This document shows positions 11,968 to 57,613 of a stretch of 61,521 bases of DNA, in pieces. The DNA lies in IMG/VR virus record IMGVR_UViG_3300034096_000310, positions 1-61,521 of that record, one strand, 5' to 3'. Each line of letters opens with the position of its first letter. Positions within the stretch are counted from its first letter, which is position 1. Both the position numbers and the translations under genes were made by a program. Below the pieces are notes generated by a model that was not told the origin of the DNA, ran no database searches, and was given only the letters and a program-made list of their open reading frames with translations. The stretch is from a virus. Taxonomy: Duplodnaviria; Caudoviricetes.

Positions 11968-14900
11968 ATGAAATTCTTATCCAATATATTAGTTAAAGCA
12001 GGTTTAATCGTAGACGGTTCAACCACTTTAAATACAATTGCTAATGCCACCACCGATACAGATAAGTTCTTGGTTAGTGATGCTGGCGTGGTAAAATACC
12101 GTACCGGATCAGAAGTTCTTTCTGATATTGGCGCTCAAGGTTCTTTAACTTTAACCACTACTGGTAGTTCCGGTGCTGCCACATTGGTTGGAAATACTCT
12201 TAATATTCCGCAATACGCAGGCACCGTTACTTCTGTAGCGATGACTGTGCCAACAGGTTTGCAGGTCGGGGGAAGCCCAATTATATCATCTGGCACATTG
12301 GCGCTTACATTTCAATCAGGATACAGTATACCGACAAACGTAAAACAAGGCAATTGGGATGACGCCTATACGTGGGTGTCAAACTTCCCAACACAGACGG
12401 GGAATAACGGGAAATATTTAACTACAGACGGGAATACTCTTTCTTGGGGTACAATTAACATATCTGGTTATGTGCCTACCAGCCGATCACTGACTATCAA
12501 CGGCACTGCCTACGACCTATCGTTAGATCGCTCTTGGTCTGTTGGTACAATAACTTCAATAACAGGTGGTACTGGATTAACCGGTGGGACCATTACTTCG
12601 TCAGGCACTTTGGCATTTGATACGACTTGGGGTGATGCGAGATATCAACAGTTATTAACAAACCCAGTTACAGGCTCAGGCACAGCAGGTCAAGTAGCCT
12701 ATTTTAATGGCACTAACTCTATCACATCTTCCCCTACATTCGCCTTTACACCTACCTCACAACTATTAGTAAATAACTCTGTTACTGCTGCAAGTGCTAT
12801 TGCGAGGGGAATAAATGCCACTCCATCTTTAACTGCCGCTGCTAATAACGATGTCCTTGTTGGGTTGGATATTGCACCTACTTTTACCAATGGGGCATTT
12901 ACAGGAGTACAGAATTGGGGTATTCGTTCACAGGGAAGCATTTATGTACCTTCAAATATTAACGGTAGCGGTTTTGGAATTACAATACAAAATACCAATA
13001 GTGGCTCAAGTGCTTTGTCAGGTATGGGATTCCAAAATGACCAATCTCAAGGAACATCAATATTACAATATTCATCAACAAGAAACAATGTTGATAATAA
13101 TAATCAATACAACTGCGGACCTGCTACAATATTTGATTATCAAGGAGCTGGTTCGTTAGTATTTTCTTCATCTTTATCATCGGGTTCGAATAGAGGTATT
13201 AGATTTTTTACGGGTGCAAGTTCTTTGACTGCAACTGAAAAAGTTAGAATATTTGCAAATGGTAATGTTACAATTCAAAATGGCGGCACACATACCGATG
13301 CAGGCTTCCGTTTAGATGTGAACGGAACAGCAAGAGCCACTACAAGCGTAAACGCTGGTACAACAGTTTTAGCAGGATTTGGACAAGCGACAAGAAGTGA
13401 AGATGGTGTTACAAATAATAACTATTTTTCAACTGGTCAAGATATAATCTTTTCATCGAATAGGTTTAGAAGTAATTTTTTAAGTCCTTCAAATAGGTTA
13501 GTTTTATCAACTCAAAATATAGCCAATAGAACAGTGGCTTTATTATTTGGTATTGACGCTACACAATTAGACGCTGGAATTACTTTAGATAACAATACTA
13601 GAACTGTTTCTTTAATAAATAGTACAGGAAACTCAAATAGCTCAACTTATACACCTAGGCTAAATGTCTTTACAAGTGGCAACGTAGCTATAAACAGTTT
13701 AACAGACGCCGGTTTTCGTTTGGATATAAACGGCACAGCTAGAGTGCAGGGGAATACGACAATACAAACAACAAATCCTTTAATTAGATTAGTTAATAAT
13801 ACTGCTACAAATGATGACCCTATATTATATTATCAAGGGGGTTTATTAAGGCTTGTCGATTTTAGTAGTGCGAATAAAGGTTTATTTATCAATACTGCGG
13901 TAGGTAATGCTTCTTTGAGTATGAGTGGAAGTGCTAACGAAGCAACTACAATGTTCAGGGTTCACGGAAGTATAACCGCTGCCTCTGCTATTGCAAGAGG
14001 AGTAAACTTAACAACCACTTTAGTAGCAGCAGCCAATAACGATGTATTAGTAGGACTTGATATTAACCCTATCTTTACCAATGGGGCATTTACTGGTGTA
14101 ACTAATTTGGGATTGAGAGTTACAGGAAATTCAATTTTTTCAAGAAATCTAAATAGTAATACGTTTATAACTATAAGTAATACAACTGCAGGAAATTTAA
14201 GCCAAGCAACTTTAGGTCTTGTTAGTGATGCTTCAGCCGGTTCAGCAACATTTCGTAAAAATAGTTCAACAACAGGAGTATACAAAATTTTAACTGTAAG
14301 TTCTGCTCAAATTTACAATGAAACAGCGGGAGATATTGCAATCCTTAATGATGTTGCAACTGGTACAATTAAAATGGCTGCAGGGGCGAGTTCTACTTCT
14401 CAAATGCAAATTTTTGCAAATGGCAATGTAGGCATCAATCAAAATACCGATGCAGGCTTCCGTTTAGATGTGAACGGTACAGCAAGGGTACAGGGTACAA
14501 CTACTATTTCCGGAGATAATAATCTTATTTTTCAACGAGCAACAGATGGCAATTCATTATTAGGTGTTGAACTTAGAAATTCAGGTGGTAATGAAAGAGG
14601 AGCATTTAAAATAAATATGTCCACTGGAGAAGTTAGAATAGGAGCTACTAATGGTGGTGGTTTCTTCCCTACATTTTTTACTAATGGTGTAGAGGGTGGT
14701 AGATTTACTGGAGCTGGAACTTTCCAAACATCCGCATCCGTAACCGCTGCCTCAGCTATTGCCAGAGGGGTAAACTTTACCAACACTTTAGTAGCAGCAG
14801 CCAATAACGATTTTTTAGTAGGACTTGATATAAACCCTACTTTTACCAATGGTGCTTTTACAGGGGTAAATAATGTGGGTTTAAGAGTGAACTTCCCAAA

Positions 14901-46464: not shown

Positions 46465-47778
46465 TCACGCTTTCGTAGTGTCTTCATTGTAGACTTTATT
46501 ATAGTATTGCTTAACCTCTGTCTTGTAGGTCTTGTCAACCCATCCTATGTATCTGTTGATGGCGTCTGACTTATGTCCGGTGATAAACCTTACGTGGTCT
46601 ATCGATACGCCGTTAGAGATTAGCATAGTGACCGCCGTCTTACGAAGCATGTGGGGGTGGACGATCTCGTAGTACTTCTGTGTGACCGCTACCTTGCGAC
46701 CGATGATATCAGCCCGCTTGTACGTAACCAGCTCGTGCATCTCAGGATACTGGGCGAAAAATGACTTGAACCCTTTCCTTATGCACTGCATGGGGTGGTA
46801 TGGTAGCGGCGTGTAGATGTTGCCGTGGTGGTTGATGTTGTAGGCGTAACGCTCAGACAGTACACGAGGCAAGGGTGTGGTCGTCTCCGTGCCGGTCTTG
46901 AGATTCTCCTTTGTTAAGAACGCCTCCCCATCCACAAAAACAATATCATCCTTTGAAAGAGTCAGCGCATCCGATATCCTCAGAGACGTCACCAGCATCG
47001 TTGCAGAGATCTCCCACAGAAACCTCATCTCCTGATCCATCTTGTCGTACTTCTTATGGCTGTCCATAACAAGCGCCTTGGCAAACTCTGTTGGCAGGGT
47101 GATGATGGGTGTCTCGTAACCCGCTACCCTGTTGGGTTTGGGCAGGGTGAGGAACATATCCCGCTCCCAGTAGGCGAGTATAACCATGATGATCGTCATC
47201 ACATCGGCCCGGGTGTTAATCTTAAAGTCATTGTCTATCATGTAAGCAACGAACTTGTCGAAGTGCTTGGACATGTTGTCTGCGATCTCTCTTTTTTGTC
47301 CCAGCTCTTTGCCGGATAGATCGTAGTCCCTGAGGTCGATGTCTTTGTTCTTTGCCACGAACCGCCAGTAGGTGGTGGTAGCAAACTGATAGGTCCTAAT
47401 CGAGGAGATGCGGAACTTGTTCTTCGCTTTGGTAGTGATGTCACCATCCGTAATGCCATCGATATACCTGTCACATAGCTGGGCGAACTTGAACGTAGGT
47501 TCGTCATCCGGTACTTGGAACATCGGTTGGGAATAATATTTCTTTACGATCTCTAGCGATCCGTGCTTGGCGAACAGGTCGCTGATGATTGCCCGCTGGC
47601 GGTCCAGATCCGCGTTCATCTCTGGTACGTCAGGGGTGTCTCCCTTGAATCGTTCCCGGGTCGGGAGGAACTTAACGTGCTTCGGTACACGGATGCCGGT
47701 AGTAATACGGATCATCTCGCTCTTGTGGCAAACCCTCGAATAGATGGTGTTATCCCGCTGATAAAAAGTAATCTTCAT
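46465..47778 (-). CDS. int: Tyrosine integrase/recombinase
   Basis: Catalytic residues in LRISD, KT, HMLRKT, GHK, RYI; N-terminal arm-binding-like region (RITTGIRV). Confidence 0.9.
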   Translation of the reverse strand: MKITFYQRDNTIYSRVCHKSEMIRITTGIRVPKHVKFLPTRERFKGDTPDVPEMNADLDRQRAIISDLFAKHGSLEIVKKYYSQPMFQVPDDEPTFKFAQLCDRYIDGITDGDITTKAKNKFRISSIRTYQFATTTYWRFVAKNKDIDLRDYDLSGKELGQKREIADNMSKHFDKFVAYMIDNDFKINTRADVMTIIMVILAYWERDMFLTLPKPNRVAGYETPIITLPTEFAKALVMDSHKKYDKMDQEMRFLWEISATMLVTSLRISDALTLSKDDIVFVDGEAFLTKENLKTGTETTTPLPRVLSERYAYNINHHGNIYTPLPYHPMQCIRKGFKSFFAQYPEMHELVTYKRADIIGRKVAVTQKYYEIVHPHMLRKTAVTMLISNGVSIDHVRFITGHKSDAINRYIGWVDKTYKTEVKQYYNKVYNEDTTKA

Positions 47779-54379: not shown

Positions 54380-55138
54380 TCCGCAGACGAACTCTGCGAC
54401 TGAGAACTTGGCATCACCCTCAACGATATCCTTCAGCCAGTTCTTCTCCTTGCCACTCATGAGGAGGGTAAACCCAAGCCGCTCCTCAGTTTCTACGTAC
54501 CGCTTGTACAACTGGGGGTTGTGCTTTGCGGCCACCTTGATATCGCTCTTATTGCTCATGATGCAGAACACGCAAGAGAGGCGGCTCATGCCGAGGTCGT
54601 AGGCATAGTGCCTCTTCTGACCTACTGACTCAATCTCAGCCCACACCTCCTTTACACTCCAGTCGAAGATGGGTAGCCAGTCGTACCACTCCCGACCCGC
54701 CTTGCTATTGCGCTCGTTGATGCGGAAGGGGATTTGCTTGGCGCGAGCGGATGACTCTTCGGAGCGGATACCCATGCAGTTCACGATGAGGGTCTTGCCT
54801 CTCTCCTTGCACCAGTTGCGGATAAACTTCTCAATCGGTTGGCGCTTGAGGTCACTGGTGCACTGGCGGTAACTGGGGGAGGGGAACATGCCGCGGTGCT
54901 CCACCATCTCGAAGAAGGTCTTGCCCGCACGAACGAGGTGCGCCTCTATGCCCAGTGAATTCTCTTGTACGTGCTCCCAACATCCCTCCCAGTCAACTTC
55001 GGGGAGGTCTGCATGGACGATGACCAGTTGGTCGTGGGGTACTACTTTGCTGAGGAATATCTTCATGGCTTGGCTATCCTTTCCACCTGAGTCGTTGATA
55101 AAAAAGATTGCGCCTCTGTCGATTAGTTGCTGAATCAT
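54377..55138 (-). CDS. PAPS reductase-family (PP-loop) protein
   Basis: SGGKDS, R.CT..LK..P, GIR.EES.ARA, PI.DW, Y.LG.SRLSC.FC. Confidence 0.85.
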   Translation of the reverse strand: MIQQLIDRGAIFFINDSGGKDSQAMKIFLSKVVPHDQLVIVHADLPEVDWEGCWEHVQENSLGIEAHLVRAGKTFFEMVEHRGMFPSPSYRQCTSDLKRQPIEKFIRNWCKERGKTLIVNCMGIRSEESSARAKQIPFRINERNSKAGREWYDWLPIFDWSVKEVWAEIESVGQKRHYAYDLGMSRLSCVFCIMSNKSDIKVAAKHNPQLYKRYVETEERLGFTLLMSGKEKNWLKDIVEGDAKFSVAEFVCG

Positions 55139-55144
55139 GGTATT

Positions 55145-55207
55145 GGGGTTTGGATGAGGAACTGGGTGTCATTCGATGACTTGCCTAAAGCGGCCCAGTT
55201 CGGGGGA
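55145..55207 (-). repeat. Intergenic tRNA-like element E1
   Basis: GAACTGGG...TAGG..GTC-ATCGAAT-GAC-A-CCCAGTTC-CTCA. Confidence 0.75.
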
Positions 55208-55209
55208 AA

Positions 55210-55293
55210 TTATCTACAAATTTGGTCTTGTATCTGACCCACCACATACCCTATCACCAATAGGGCAAGCAGTAACTGGATAACCTTTCTCAT
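55210..55293 (-). CDS. 27-aa membrane peptide MRKVIQLLLALLVIGYVVGQIQDQICR
   Basis: ATGA-coupled to the upstream ORF; stop lies just before E1. Confidence 0.5.
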   Translation of the reverse strand: MRKVIQLLLALLVIGYVVGQIQDQICR

Positions 55294-55484
55294 AGGGGTA
55301 GTAGGTTTGCTTGTTTACAAAGGCGCTCCCACTTAAGGTCACGCAAGATTTGCTTTGAATCTCCGCCCAGTTCCACGAGGATTTGCTTTACTCGGGTATG
55401 GGTAGAGATTGTTTTTTCGGTACGACGGATAACTTGTCCATCTGCCTTGGCAGTAAAGAGTGGGGATTTGATTCGCTTACGCAT
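55290..55484 (-). CDS. Early basic protein (MRKRIK...)
   Basis: Start overlaps the end of 55477-55602. Confidence 0.55.
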   Translation of the reverse strand: MRKRIKSPLFTAKADGQVIRRTEKTISTHTRVKQILVELGGDSKQILRDLKWERLCKQANLLPL

Positions 55485-55602
55485 AAGAAGGATTTTGAAG
55501 GGTGATAGAAAGGGTGTCAAATGTCACGATTTCCCATCCCATGGATAGGAGGTCAGCGGCAATCTGCTGACCCTTTAGGGTGAGGAGGTTTACGTTTATC
55601 AT
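55477..55602 (-). CDS. First early ORF, 41 aa (MINVNLLTLKG...)
   Basis: Read directly; AAACACC-ATG leader like other array genes. Confidence 0.55.
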   Translation of the reverse strand: MINVNLLTLKGQQIAADLLSMGWEIVTFDTLSITLQNPSYA

Positions 55603-55608
55603 GGTGTT

Positions 55609-55666
55609 TGGGTTTCGGAGGTTACTGCCCCCATCGTCAGTAGTGCGAATATTAGCACTAGACCCA
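55609..55666 (-). ncRNA. Type III hammerhead ribozyme
   Basis: UGGGUC / UAGUGC-UAAUAUUC-GCACUA / CUGACGA-U / GGGGG-CAGUAA-CCUCC / GAAA-CCCA. Confidence 0.88.
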
Positions 55667-56185
55667 TTTACTTATCGGGTAGTCGGGGGTGATAAATCGA
55701 CCCTTAACATCTGCCCATGCAAGTCAGTCCTTTCGGTTTGCTGACTCCAACACCCTGACTCGGAACTACCGAGGTTTGGCGCGACCTTGCGAGAACACTG
55801 GGAGCAGGTACGATACCGCCAGTGTGCCTGATGTTTATGTGCCGAGGAAGGCATCCTCGAGTCTCATCCCACTCTTCGTGGTGGCCACAACGTCTTACGA
55901 CGGAAGGCTCATATCGAGACCATCGCTATGCATTAATCGTGGTTTGGTGTCCGTCCGTCCATCGTACTCACCTAGTCGGGTGGATGGGTGGGAGGTGCGT
56001 TGCCCTAACACGAAACCTGAAAAGAACTATAGTGCTTTGCGGAATCGCTTACTCTCTACACCTCTTCCGACATTACCTTTCGGGATTGTTTATCAGTTCC
56101 ATTTAGCCTATTGCACTAGGGCAGGCGCACCATTACTTCAGAGCGGTAGTAAGCAAAACCTCAAAGAACTTCGTCCCGAAAGACA
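55661..56185 (-). ncRNA. Putative large structured non-coding RNA (~520 nt)
   Basis: Lies between a consensus promoter and the hammerhead cut site; many nested helices and GNRA loops; no credible ORF. Confidence 0.6.
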
Positions 56186-56188
56186 AGG

Positions 56189-56221
56189 CAAAACTAACGG
56201 ATAGGGATAACCGAATCCAAA
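56189..56221 (-). promoter_or_regulatory. Bacteroidota housekeeping-type promoter (early, leftward)
   Basis: TTTG (56221-56218), 21-nt spacer, TAGTTTTG (56196-56189), A/T-rich upstream. Confidence 0.8.
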
Positions 56222-56346
56222 TATTTTTGAAACTTTTTTTAAAAAATACGTATGTATACTTAGGCCGAGTGGCCAAAATCAATGAGTTATGAAAAATGTT
56301 AAATATTGTTAAGGGTTAACCATTAGTGGCCCAGTTCGGGGGCATC

Positions 56347-56670
56347 CTATAGCCGCTTATTGACATAGTAATTCCGTAAGTAAGAGAGATACTCCCTTCC
56401 TCTAGGAGATAGAGAGTAACGAATACCCTCTCGGACAAGCAATCCCAGTTGACAAAGATGCTTAAGGTTATTCCACGCATTGTTAGGCTTAACCCGACCA
56501 ATAGAATACTTAGCCAAATACTCACACACCCCTGCACACGTACACACACCCAAGACACGAACACCAACGAGTAAGCGCAAATCCAAGGGAGCAAGACGAG
56601 GGATACCCATCCGCTTCGCGATGCGATACTCCGCACCATCAGACATCAAATAGAATTTCTCAAGTTTCAT
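56347..56670 (-). CDS. Winged-helix (MarR-like) DNA-binding protein
   Basis: LK.L.QLGLLVR....YSLS.RGREYL wing motif. Confidence 0.6.
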   Translation of the reverse strand: MKLEKFYLMSDGAEYRIAKRMGIPRLAPLDLRLLVGVRVLGVCTCAGVCEYLAKYSIGRVKPNNAWNNLKHLCQLGLLVREGIRYSLSPRGREYLSYLRNYYVNKRL

Positions 56671-57100
56671 TGCTGGTCGACGGAGGGGAAAGGGGAGGGG
56701 GGATTATTTCGCTTTTCAGTACACACACCCACATTTTCCCACCTGACCTCCATCCGCTTTTTGTTTTATCGTTTATCGTTTCGCTTTTTCTCCCCACATC
56801 TGCACGATTTGCACACGTGTGCGTGTTGAGTGTCAGCATATTGCGTACTCCAGATGCTAATCGGTACTTAGCTACGAGGGGGCAAAATCGATTTCGGAAG
56901 GCCGAAAAACGCACCCACCCAGTCGCGGATTCGCGGTTCGCGCACGCATGCCCACCCACCCATTTATATATATAACCCCCACCCTTCACCCACATATTCC
57001 ACCCAAATATTCCCACTGGTGATACTCACGGCTTTCTACAAATGTAAACTGAGCAACTATCTATTTTATTGTGTTACTCACAGATGTTGGTAACTGGCTC

Positions 57101-57131
57101 TTTGAATTAGGTTATGGGGTCTTTATTTTTG
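57101..57131 (+). promoter_or_regulatory. Bacteroidota housekeeping-type promoter (rightward)
   Basis: TTTG (57101-57104), 19-nt spacer, TATTTTTG (57124-57131). Confidence 0.7.
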
Positions 57132-57134
57132 GCG

Positions 57135-57400
57135 CTATCCACCTTTCAGGAATCCGGCTCGGGTGGATCTAGAACGCGCAAGAGTGGGACAGCAGACGAT
57201 GGCGCAGCCCCGATGCAAAGGGAGGAGGGGTATGTCTGCAGGCTGGCACTTCAGTCTTAAAGTAGCTCCCAGACCGATCGGCGGTGTGTCCAGATCGGGA
57301 CGATAGATGCGGGCGTCCGAAGGGGCTCAGGCAAGTATCGGTTGCAGATCGGGGGACATAGTCATGCTCTCGATTCTGCAAGCATCCTCAAAGGCTAGGC
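57135..57400 (+). ncRNA. Putative structured RNA/leader
   Basis: GC-rich non-coding stretch with at least six helices right after the promoter. Confidence 0.5.
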
Positions 57401-57457
57401 AAGTATGTATACCTGTTTTTAGAGTATTAGTACAGGGTGGAGTCTAATTTGCAGATT

Positions 57458-57613
57458 ATGGAAATGATAAAAAGAAAGGACGGGTCTTATTCTCGCAGGG
57501 GTCTGTGGGATAATATCCGGGCCAATGCCGGTTCGGGGAAGAAGCCCACGAAGGCTATGTTAAAGCAAGAAGCTAAAATCAAAAGGAATGCCACTAAAAA
57601 AAGCAAAGGGTAA
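57458..57613 (+). CDS. Small basic protein (51 aa, GLWDNIRA motif)
   Basis: Read directly; K/R rich. Confidence 0.65.
   Translation: MEMIKRKDGSYSRRGLWDNIRANAGSGKKPTKAMLKQEAKIKRNATKKSKG

Follow-up and report, generated by a model that had tools for sequence, protein, structure and literature searches.

A modular, structured non-coding RNA at the head of the replication operon of temperate Bacteroidota-type phages, with a predicted hammerhead ribozyme at its 3′ end in nine of fifteen lineages

The stretch of DNA analysed here (the window) is the whole of IMG/VR record IMGVR_UViG_3300034096_000310, which is 61,521 nucleotides (nt) long and has a completeness estimate of 92%. It is a tailed temperate phage, with terminase, portal and head genes on the plus strand and a minus-strand block that runs from ~55.6 kb to 38 kb and holds a PAPS-reductase-like gene, an integrase, Erf, a RecE-type exonuclease, a replication initiator and a primase/helicase. 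The element under study is an RNA of ~524 nt on the minus strand, placed at 56184→55661. In this and related temperate Bacteroidota-type phages it lies at the head of the long leftward replication/recombination operon, with ~17 kb of operon behind it. A first-pass annotation had proposed a large non-coding RNA of a possibly new class at this position, bounded by a promoter and a ribozyme, and the RNA indeed proved to be structured, conserved, non-coding and unmatched in Rfam.

Comparison of the TerL protein of the window with INPHARED matched 125 records, all of them Bacteroidota phages and all below 60% identity (best 31.7%); these 125 include 68 Flavobacterium, 15 Cellulophaga and 3 Bacteroides records. 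Genome contigs scanned with the pattern of the conserved core described below (0 matches) and with TerL (no relatives) both came back empty, so that no prophage copy or named host was found. No tRNA genes were found in the window. In the phage of the related locus L091, a tRNA gene (13574-13651, 51 bits) lies ~4.5 kb downstream of its RNA.

From the promoter to the 3′ end, the parts of the element are as follows (related loci carry L numbers).

56189..56221, minus strand: promoter, with a –7 box TAGTTTTG at 56196-56189 and TTTG at 56221-56218, 21 nt upstream
56171..56186, minus strand: 5′-terminal hairpin, weak in the window (3-5 bp, UUGUC/GACGA)
56163..56170, minus strand: first boxA-like word AGUUCUUU, directly 3′ of the hairpin
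56013..56146, minus strand: optional module of ~134 nt, missing in L002, L003 and L042 and present in L141/L149
55795..56012, minus strand: 5′ domain, only in the window, L003, L042, L139, L144 and L149
55712..55792, minus strand: family core of ~75 nt, common to all members (from alignment and pair counts)
55667..55711, minus strand: 3′ domain, a helix UGGG/CCCG enclosing a hairpin with the invariant loop CGAUUUAUC, followed by conserved UAAGU
55609..55666, minus strand: type III hammerhead, with predicted cleavage after C55661

Homologues were sought with the neighbouring PAPS-reductase gene as a handle, followed by blastn and alignment and then by scans with conserved words, and this yielded a family of 15 distinct core sequences from IMG/VR and freshwater metagenome contigs. 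The sequence from 56012 of the window through the hammerhead is conserved in L002 (99.7%), L042 (85%) and L003 (80%), and word scans of IMG/VR added L089 and L090/L091, for a total of six IMG/VR contigs besides the window's own record; in the metagenome scan, 14 of the 15 matches were true members. Nine lineages end in a hammerhead (the window, L002, L003, L042, L139, L141/L149, L144, L089 and L091), and six carry the core without one (L145, L137, L135, L142, L140 and L136). Most stretches retrieved by the word scans were discarded as chance (42 of 45 in one scan and 42 of 48 in another); L088, L092 and L147 were dropped as chance pattern matches, as were the weak nhmmer rows L077, L056 and L078.

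The core common to all members consists of the invariant GCGCCAAACC, a covarying hairpin CUCGG/CCGAG, the invariant AGGGUGUUGG and a second covarying hairpin (AGUCAG/CUGACU) with an asymmetric internal loop and a CC-GAAA-GG tip. In a plain MAFFT alignment of 14 distinct members, 98.5% of the 266 cells were paired and 9 of the 19 pairs had changed on both sides (38 cells), which none of 500 shuffles matched; slid controls were only 27–42% paired. A further candidate core helix, CCAAACC/GGUGUUGG, is invariant in all members and is thus neither supported nor contradicted for want of variation. The covariance model of the core, R1, scored 91.6 bits in the window and 80.7–96.1 bits in 15 member loci, with the next best match among 54 sources at 11.7 bits. 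It occurs once in the window and once in each of the five further virus records examined, and no second copy per genome in the style of nutL/nutR was found in these six. This invariant core is common to phages whose proteins are only 27–61% identical.

The region 56184→55661 is conserved as coding on neither strand and is a non-coding structured RNA. On the minus strand, where the first-pass annotation had seen no credible open reading frame (ORF), the longest stop-to-stop frames span 73 and 63 amino acids (aa) and are both unconserved. The plus-strand ORF at 55689-56204 (171 aa), which had been flagged as a possible coding alternative, accumulated 89, 102 and 75 substitutions at codon positions 1, 2 and 3, with no third-position excess, and had no Pfam or PHROG match. 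Among six relatives there are 1-nt indels between the sequences, and each frame contains stops in at least five of the six.

Direct reading of the sequence recovered all seven helices that had been proposed, each on the minus strand:

56131-56126 with 55999-55994, minus strand: outer helix 1, GGUGCG/CGCACC
56123-56117 with 56007-56001, minus strand: outer helix 2, UGCCCUA/UAGGGCA
55920-55916 with 55865-55861, minus strand: helix GUCUC/GAGAC
55859-55854 with 55848-55843, minus strand: helix CGAGGA/UCCUCG
55825-55819 with 55801-55795, minus strand: helix ACACUGG/CCAGUGU
55773-55769 with 55763-55759, minus strand: helix CUCGG/CCGAG
55746-55741 with 55727-55722, minus strand: helix AGUCAG/CUGACU, around CC-GAAA-GG

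In a full-length alignment of the six relatives, 16 of the 91 RNAalifold pairs showed compensatory changes and 0 of 500 shuffles were as good, the structure having been predicted from the same six sequences on which it was tested. This structure again contains GUCUC/GAGAC, CGUC/GACG, CGAGGA/UCCUCG and ACACUGG/CCAGUGU, next to further helices. Covariation, a check named by the annotation, is thus present in the core as well as in the full-length alignment. The thermodynamic check that it had also named was not favourable: the minimum free energy (MFE) of the minus strand had a z-score of –1.34 over 601 nt, with 2 of 20 shuffles equally stable, and that of the opposite strand was –0.50.

The 5′ domain is built from the helices CCAUCCACC/GGUG..GAUGG, GUCUC/GAGAC (which encloses CGUC-GUAA-GACG and CACC/GGUG), CGAGGA/UCCUCG and ACACUGG/CCAGUGU. 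Compensatory changes were found in GUCUC/GAGAC, CGUC/GACG and CGAGGA/UCCUCG, and ACACUGG/CCAGUGU is invariant; in L003, 30 nt of inner hairpins are missing. Within the 3′ domain, helices 16 and 17 of the six-relative structure carry compensatory changes, and members of subfamily 2 have a simple hairpin in its place while AUAAGUG is kept. The two outer helices are present in the window, but they are not features of the family, as their 5′ strands sit in the 134-nt block. In L149, one of the 13 pairs of the outer clamp is broken (U to G), and a hairpin internal to the block competes with outer helix 2; its strands read GCCU..AGGC in the window but GACU..AGUC in L149, a compensatory change. Because it is missing in L002, L003 and L042, has a broken clamp pair and contains this alternative covarying local hairpin, we regard the block as an optional module, and the outer long-range clamp as lineage-specific at best. 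The module is bracketed by copies of AGUUCUUU at 56170-56163 and 56028-56021, and looks like a leader module duplicated or swapped via recombination at AGUUCUUU. The RNA is therefore modular, consisting of a promoter, a 5′ hairpin with AGUUCUU, a swappable 5′ domain, the invariant core, a 3′ domain and, in 9 of 15 lineages, a hammerhead.

The hammerhead of the window has stem III UGGGU/ACCCA, stem I UAGUGC/GCACUA and stem II GGGGG/CCUCC, and its core reads CUGACGA, with an extra U55633 beside stem II, and then GAAA. Written out, with an arrow at the predicted cleavage, the copy shared with L002 is GGGUC↓UAGUGC..GCACUA-CUGACGA-U-GGGGG..CCUCC-GAAA-CCC. The elements required of a catalytic core (CUGANGA...GAAA, a GUH triplet and A15.1-U16.1) are found in the window as GGGUC↓U, CUGACGA and GAAAC, and the MFE fold is a three-way junction (z –2.37). 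In seven other lineages the core reads CUGAUGA. Read by eye, all three stems vary by lineage yet remain paired: stem I as UAGUGC/GCACUA, UACGGA/UCCGUA, UACGGG/CCCGUA or UGCGGA/UCCGCA; stem II as GGGGG/CCUCC, GGCC/GGCC, GCC/GGC, GUCC/GGAC or GCCA/UGGC; and stem III as GGGU/ACCC, GGU/ACC or GCGU/ACGC. Copies in the relatives are textbook type III hammerheads. In a local search against RF00008, the L089 copy reached 43.0 bits (E 9e-9; gathering score 48.5); none of the loci of eight relatives attained the gathering score of 48.5 bits, and the window copy gave no match at E≤10 in a 121-nt search, nor at the gathering score. A clean 10.1-11.1 pair, with which Perreault et al. accepted hammerhead candidates according to the relevant passage of PMC3088659, is present in L003, L042, L139, L144, L149, L089 and L091. 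In all nine hammerhead lineages the predicted cleavage site would form the 3′ end of the RNA, 7-25 nt ahead of the first start codon. The claim that the RNA ends in a ribozyme thus applies to nine lineages, with the reservation that the copy in the window is non-canonical and escaped detection by Rfam. A comparable arrangement is described in the part of PMC3088659 on the haloviruses HF1 and HF2, in which the first early ORF has its start codon 13 nt downstream of a hammerhead and the mapped transcript 5′ end is at most 3 nt from the cleavage site.

At the other end of the RNA, the –7 box TAGTTTTG fits the Bacteroidota sigma-A consensus TAnnTTTG. A box of this type lies upstream in all members (TATGTTTG in close relatives and TATCTTTG in subfamily 2), and both promoter boxes occur at equal spacing in L003, L042, L139, L144, L149 and L091; we take the upstream TTTG at 56221-56218 to be a –33 element. 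A scan with the sigma-70 consensus did not list the promoter at 56189-56221, as expected for a Bacteroidota host. The proposed promoter boundary can thus be retained in the form of a Bacteroidota-type –7 box, but not as a sigma-70 promoter. Since the Flavobacterium sigma-A –7 box spans –12 to –5 in the passage of PMC9723704 that deals with it, transcription is predicted to start at ~56184, giving an RNA of ~524 nt up to the cut at 55661, close to the ~520 nt estimated before.

The predicted +1 coincides in most relatives with the beginning of a 5′ hairpin of 6-7 bp, the stems of which vary while complementarity is kept (CGGAUUC/GAGUCCG, GUUGAC/GUCGAC, GUCAAU/AUUGAC and GUCAAA/UUUGAC). Right behind this hairpin, each of the 14 lineages examined has AGUUCUU (16 sites in total), even though their 5′ regions cannot otherwise be aligned between the four subgroups. 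The longer word GUUCUUU occurs at 15 of these 16 sites and agrees with all seven letters of the GYTCTTT part of boxA; L089 has GUUCUUA. The A-rich tail of boxA is partly kept, as UUUCAAAUG, UUUGAGG, UUUAAGG or UUUUCAU. Published boxA forms include UGCUCUUUAACA and AUGAUCUUUGAAA, and in the rrn operons of B. subtilis a boxA-like sequence stands directly downstream of a small 5′-terminal hairpin (both in the pertinent passages of PMC13753749). The pattern GYTCTTTAANA has been used in boxA searches (bioRxiv 10.1101/091223), boxA TGTTCTTTAACA follows a boxB stem-loop (PMC2666751), and boxA GTTCTTTAAAA was inserted ahead of a CRISPR array so as to reduce polarity (PMC7862264). No description of a boxA in Bacteroidetes was found in the literature.

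Six environmental metatranscriptome runs contain 13-58% of the sampled words of 55300-56400, and we placed the contigs of four such runs on the window. The ranges 55663-56012 and 56023-56173 are covered by contigs that match the window exactly, and in three runs the 56012/56013 junction is spanned by contigs of a close variant. At the lower end, contigs from two studies terminate without loose ends at positions 55665 and 55663, which places them 2-4 nt from the predicted cut; the upper ends, at positions 56173, 56170 and 56169, are 11-15 nt away from the predicted +1. The discrete transcript that the annotation had anticipated is thus matched by library contigs spanning 55663-56173, and their ends give a weak hint of a discrete 3′ end near the predicted cleavage site. 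Within the four runs, the upstream ORF (56220-56900) and the hammerhead body (55581-55651) have no contig cover, and contig depth is greater over the RNA than over 54800-55569; neither observation is counted as evidence. No back-splice or other joints were seen in the four runs, which accordingly hold no sign of circular forms.

The RNA family is previously undescribed. No match at the gathering score was obtained with the 4227 models of Rfam 15 over the whole window, which upholds the proposal of a new class, and at the loci of eight relatives the only such match was the tRNA of L091. At E≤10, the searches of 55000-57500 and of L137:1380-1730, together with the 121-nt search, returned only chance-level rows (STnc300, v-snoRNA-1, rpsL sRNA, mir-1889, CRISPR-DR36 and c4-2), which we set aside. 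GOLLD, ROOL, HEARO, OLE, raiA, GEMM and the other Rfam 15 models remained unmatched, blastn against INPHARED phages found no match, and no earlier description was found in the literature on hammerheads or on phage and intergenic structured RNAs. It is the core and the composite that are new; the parts (hammerhead, boxA-like word, Bacteroidota promoter) are of known kinds.

The following genes flank the RNA or belong to the operon behind it.

56347-56670, minus strand: ORF of 107 aa, directly upstream of the RNA promoter in seven loci of the hammerhead-bearing subfamily
55477..55602, minus strand: first ORF of the operon, 41 aa, with its ATG 7 nt past the hammerhead
55293..55484, minus strand: basic protein of 64 aa (MRKRIKSP...), co-occurring strictly with the hammerhead-bearing subfamily
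46465-47778: integrase

Every member has an ATG within ~10-30 nt downstream of the RNA, without a Shine-Dalgarno sequence, the absence of which is typical of the phylum according to the relevant part of PMC6847099. Small ORFs homologous to the 41-aa ORF occur in L149 and L003, and the downstream gene differs among phages. The 64-aa protein was found in every hammerhead lineage whose locus extends far enough, and is missing from subfamily 2 and from other PAPS-reductase loci. Its AF2 model (pLDDT 70) has a strand-strand-helix-helix arrangement, with no Pfam family and no Foldseek match in the PDB at E≤0.001. An Atlas feature search leans towards HTH_7-like clusters (small resolvase-type helix-turn-helix; 0.90), which serves as a lead only. 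Given the missing Pfam family, the pLDDT of 70 and the missing PDB fold match, the idea that it is an N-like or ribbon-helix-helix factor is unsupported. The 107-aa ORF has a conserved C-terminal GREYLSYLRNY..NKRL and no Pfam or PHROG match, and may be a winged-helix regulator.

Further upstream, within the ORF-poor divergent region 56700-57437, ~230 nt at 57176-57405 are ~80% identical to L089 6135-6362 and L091 6735-6871, despite the proteins of these two phages being only 27-61% identical to those of the window. This stretch, on which Rfam found nothing, may be a second conserved non-coding element (an RNA, attP or an origin). In L137, L135, L142 and L136, two direct repeats TTTTGTTAA(T/A)GGATTTTAAC lie ~150 nt upstream of the RNA start, before the subfamily 2 promoters, and L042 and L149 carry repeated TTTAGCA/TGCTAAA words; both look like operator sites.

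As to function, the reading that we prefer, though only as a tentative possibility, is that the RNA is a Nus/boxA-loaded leader of the early operon, with the core as a binding platform, that is cut from the mRNA by the hammerhead. The nascent leader would start like that of an rRNA operon, with a terminal hairpin followed by the boxA-like GUUCUUU, which would load host NusB/NusE-type factors onto RNA polymerase. Such loading might in turn confer resistance to Rho-type termination over the untranslated RNA and the ~17-kb operon, with the conserved core acting as a platform for a further partner. The hammerhead would then separate the folded leader from the mRNA. Cleavage would set the structured RNA free and give the message a 5′-OH end and an unstructured A/C-rich start region, which would suit the Shine-Dalgarno-less translation of Bacteroidota. 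A bolder version is decidedly unlikely in our estimate: here the RNA would mimic an rRNA start, its core would lock onto the elongation complex or a Nus partner, and after ribozyme release it would travel with RNA polymerase, or re-target it, as an antitermination subunit.

Several points weigh against the boxA-loaded leader. By the time the polymerase reached the first gene, the hammerhead would already have cut it off from the RNA that carries boxA, which is awkward for tethered antitermination, and the hammerhead is missing in six lineages, so that ribozyme release is not essential. The window copy departs from the 10.1-11.1 acceptance rule as given in that passage of PMC3088659, U55633 forming a U.C mispair or a one-nt bulge, and would therefore require an activity test. 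AGUUCUU is called boxA-like by its resemblance to published forms rather than to a boxA of the host phylum, and the tail after GUUCUUU varies (C/G/A/U, then A). AGTTCTTT occurs in 13 copies across the window against 2.9 expected, and through this over-representation is not unique to the leader; most copies lie inside plus-strand structural genes. The partner of the core remains a postulate, the MFE z-score of the RNA is weak, and assembled contigs cannot show transcript ends, levels or strand.

Other functions are conceivable for the same architecture. The c4 RNA of P1/P7 and the CI RNA of P4 are made from the leader of the operon that they control and are cut out by RNase P. By analogy, the present RNA could be a processed trans- or cis-acting immunity-type RNA that, once cut by the hammerhead, limits downstream lytic or host genes by base pairing; its swappable 5′ domain would set the specificity, and the boxA-like word would merely protect the untranslated RNA from Rho. 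The position at the operon head of a temperate phage with an integrase (46465-47778), the predicted release by a ribozyme, the modular 5′ domains, the occurrence in six metatranscriptome libraries, the small putative DNA-binding regulators on the flanks and a faint GAAA-hairpin match to c4-2 (RF02944, 14.6 bits, E 4.5) all agree with this. In contrast, no conserved complementarity to the downstream 0.8-1.5 kb was found in eight loci, no sequence complementary to the invariant loop CGAUUUAUC is present in the rest of the window, the c4-clan models stay below significance, and it is the invariant folded core, rather than a variable antisense loop, that is best conserved. The 5′ strand of the ACACUGG hairpin (~55815-55825) is complementary to ~54861-54871, ~267 nt into the PAPS-reductase ORF, over 11 nt in the window and 14 nt in L003, probably by chance since this is not seen in L149, L089 or L091. 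We judge an immunity-type RNA somewhat unlikely. The invariant single-stranded and junction nucleotides between covarying helices, the hint of a free RNA end at the cleavage site and the independence of the RNA from the identity of the downstream gene would also suit a protein decoy, sponge or host-takeover RNA, the core of which titrates a host transcription, translation or defence factor after the hammerhead has freed a stable form. A single copy with a single platform is unlike repeat-rich sponges, and the partner would again be only postulated, which leaves this explanation unlikely.

A sensor leader, with the core as an aptamer for a small molecule or second messenger that tunes hammerhead cleavage, or start-codon access in subfamily 2, would account for the riboswitch-like conservation (an invariant junction with covarying stems), for the location directly upstream of a start codon in all members and for the 3′ tail of the RNA continuing straight into hammerhead stem III. 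This is very unlikely, given that the core and the hammerhead are set apart by ~60 nt and an entire domain, that 150-400 nt of variable sequence precede the core, that no alternative covarying pairing was seen and that no Rfam riboswitch matched. Finally, the region might hold no functional RNA at all, being either coding (for instance through the 171-aa plus-strand ORF) or neutral DNA with chance hairpins, and the existence of that ORF and the unremarkable MFE z-score could be cited in its favour. The even spread of substitutions over codon positions (89/102/75), the 1-nt indels and broken frames in relatives, the lack of a protein family, the strong compensatory change in the core and along the full length, and an invariant core kept among phages with 27-61% identical proteins contradict this, making it barely credible.

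Hammerheads in bacteria and phages have reportedly been known since 2011, mostly without a biological reason; here, one regularly marks the 3′ end of a large folded RNA, which would give it a concrete, testable processing role. The family is also a new RNA class in uncultivated freshwater Bacteroidota phages. Transcription and translation signals of Bacteroidota differ from those of model systems, and phage gene regulation in this phylum has hardly been explored. A functional boxA-like start would mean that the range of Nus-factor antitermination includes Bacteroidota phages, and a phage would be seen to protect and exploit an untranslated leader of 300-520 nt. If the freed RNA itself acted in antitermination, Bacteroidota phages would possess a functional counterpart of lambda N/nut that needs no protein, and a bacterial hammerhead would for the first time have a role beyond plain transcript trimming. 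The family is small and well defined, and with its covariance model built it is ready for cleavage, probing and partner work.

Each part of the RNA resembles a known system. The three-stem junction, the CUGANGA...GAAA core, the GUC triplet and the covarying stems are those of RF00008, and the placement a few nt upstream of the first early ORF recalls HF1/HF2 as described in the corresponding part of PMC3088659; in contrast to RF00008, the hammerhead here is only a 3′ boundary, and the ~470-nt body upstream of it has no counterpart. With rrn and CRISPR boxA leaders and lambda nut, the RNA shares a promoter-proximal hairpin followed by GUUCUUU, which fits the first seven letters of GYTCTTTAANA, TGTTCTTTAACA and GTTCTTTAAAA, at the head of a long untranslated transcript, whereas the large conserved folded RNA and the ribozyme that follow here are both absent from those leaders. 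The put RNAs of HK022 are cis-acting antiterminators of ~70 nt with two adjacent stem-loops, present in two copies (putL and putR) and reportedly independent of boxA and Nus factors. They are likewise promoter-proximal, and the core described here also consists of two abutting stems and might, like put, act on the polymerase that is transcribing it; unlike put, this RNA has one copy per genome, a boxA-like word and a ribozyme.

The c4 and CI RNAs are small or medium structured RNAs in phage operon leaders that are cut from the primary transcript, and c4 RNAs have complementary target boxes in the same transcript. In the alignment, the GAAA-capped hairpin with an asymmetric internal loop is common to the c4 clan (CL00128) and the present family. 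Among the clan models (RF01695, RF02944 and RF02913), the best score was that of c4-2 in L137 (14.6 bits against a gathering score of 41, E 4.5), with none in the window at E≤10; c4-2 is described in PMC5737381. Flanking complementary target boxes were found in none of eight loci, the RNA is ~5-7 times longer than c4/CI, and its release would depend on a ribozyme of its own, where c4/CI use RNase P. It shares its large size, ornate folding, occurrence in phages, conserved junctions and covarying stems with GOLLD, ROOL and HEARO, from which it differs in lacking an Rfam match and neighbouring tRNAs, and in holding a fixed place as an operon leader with a defined promoter at one end and a ribozyme at the other.

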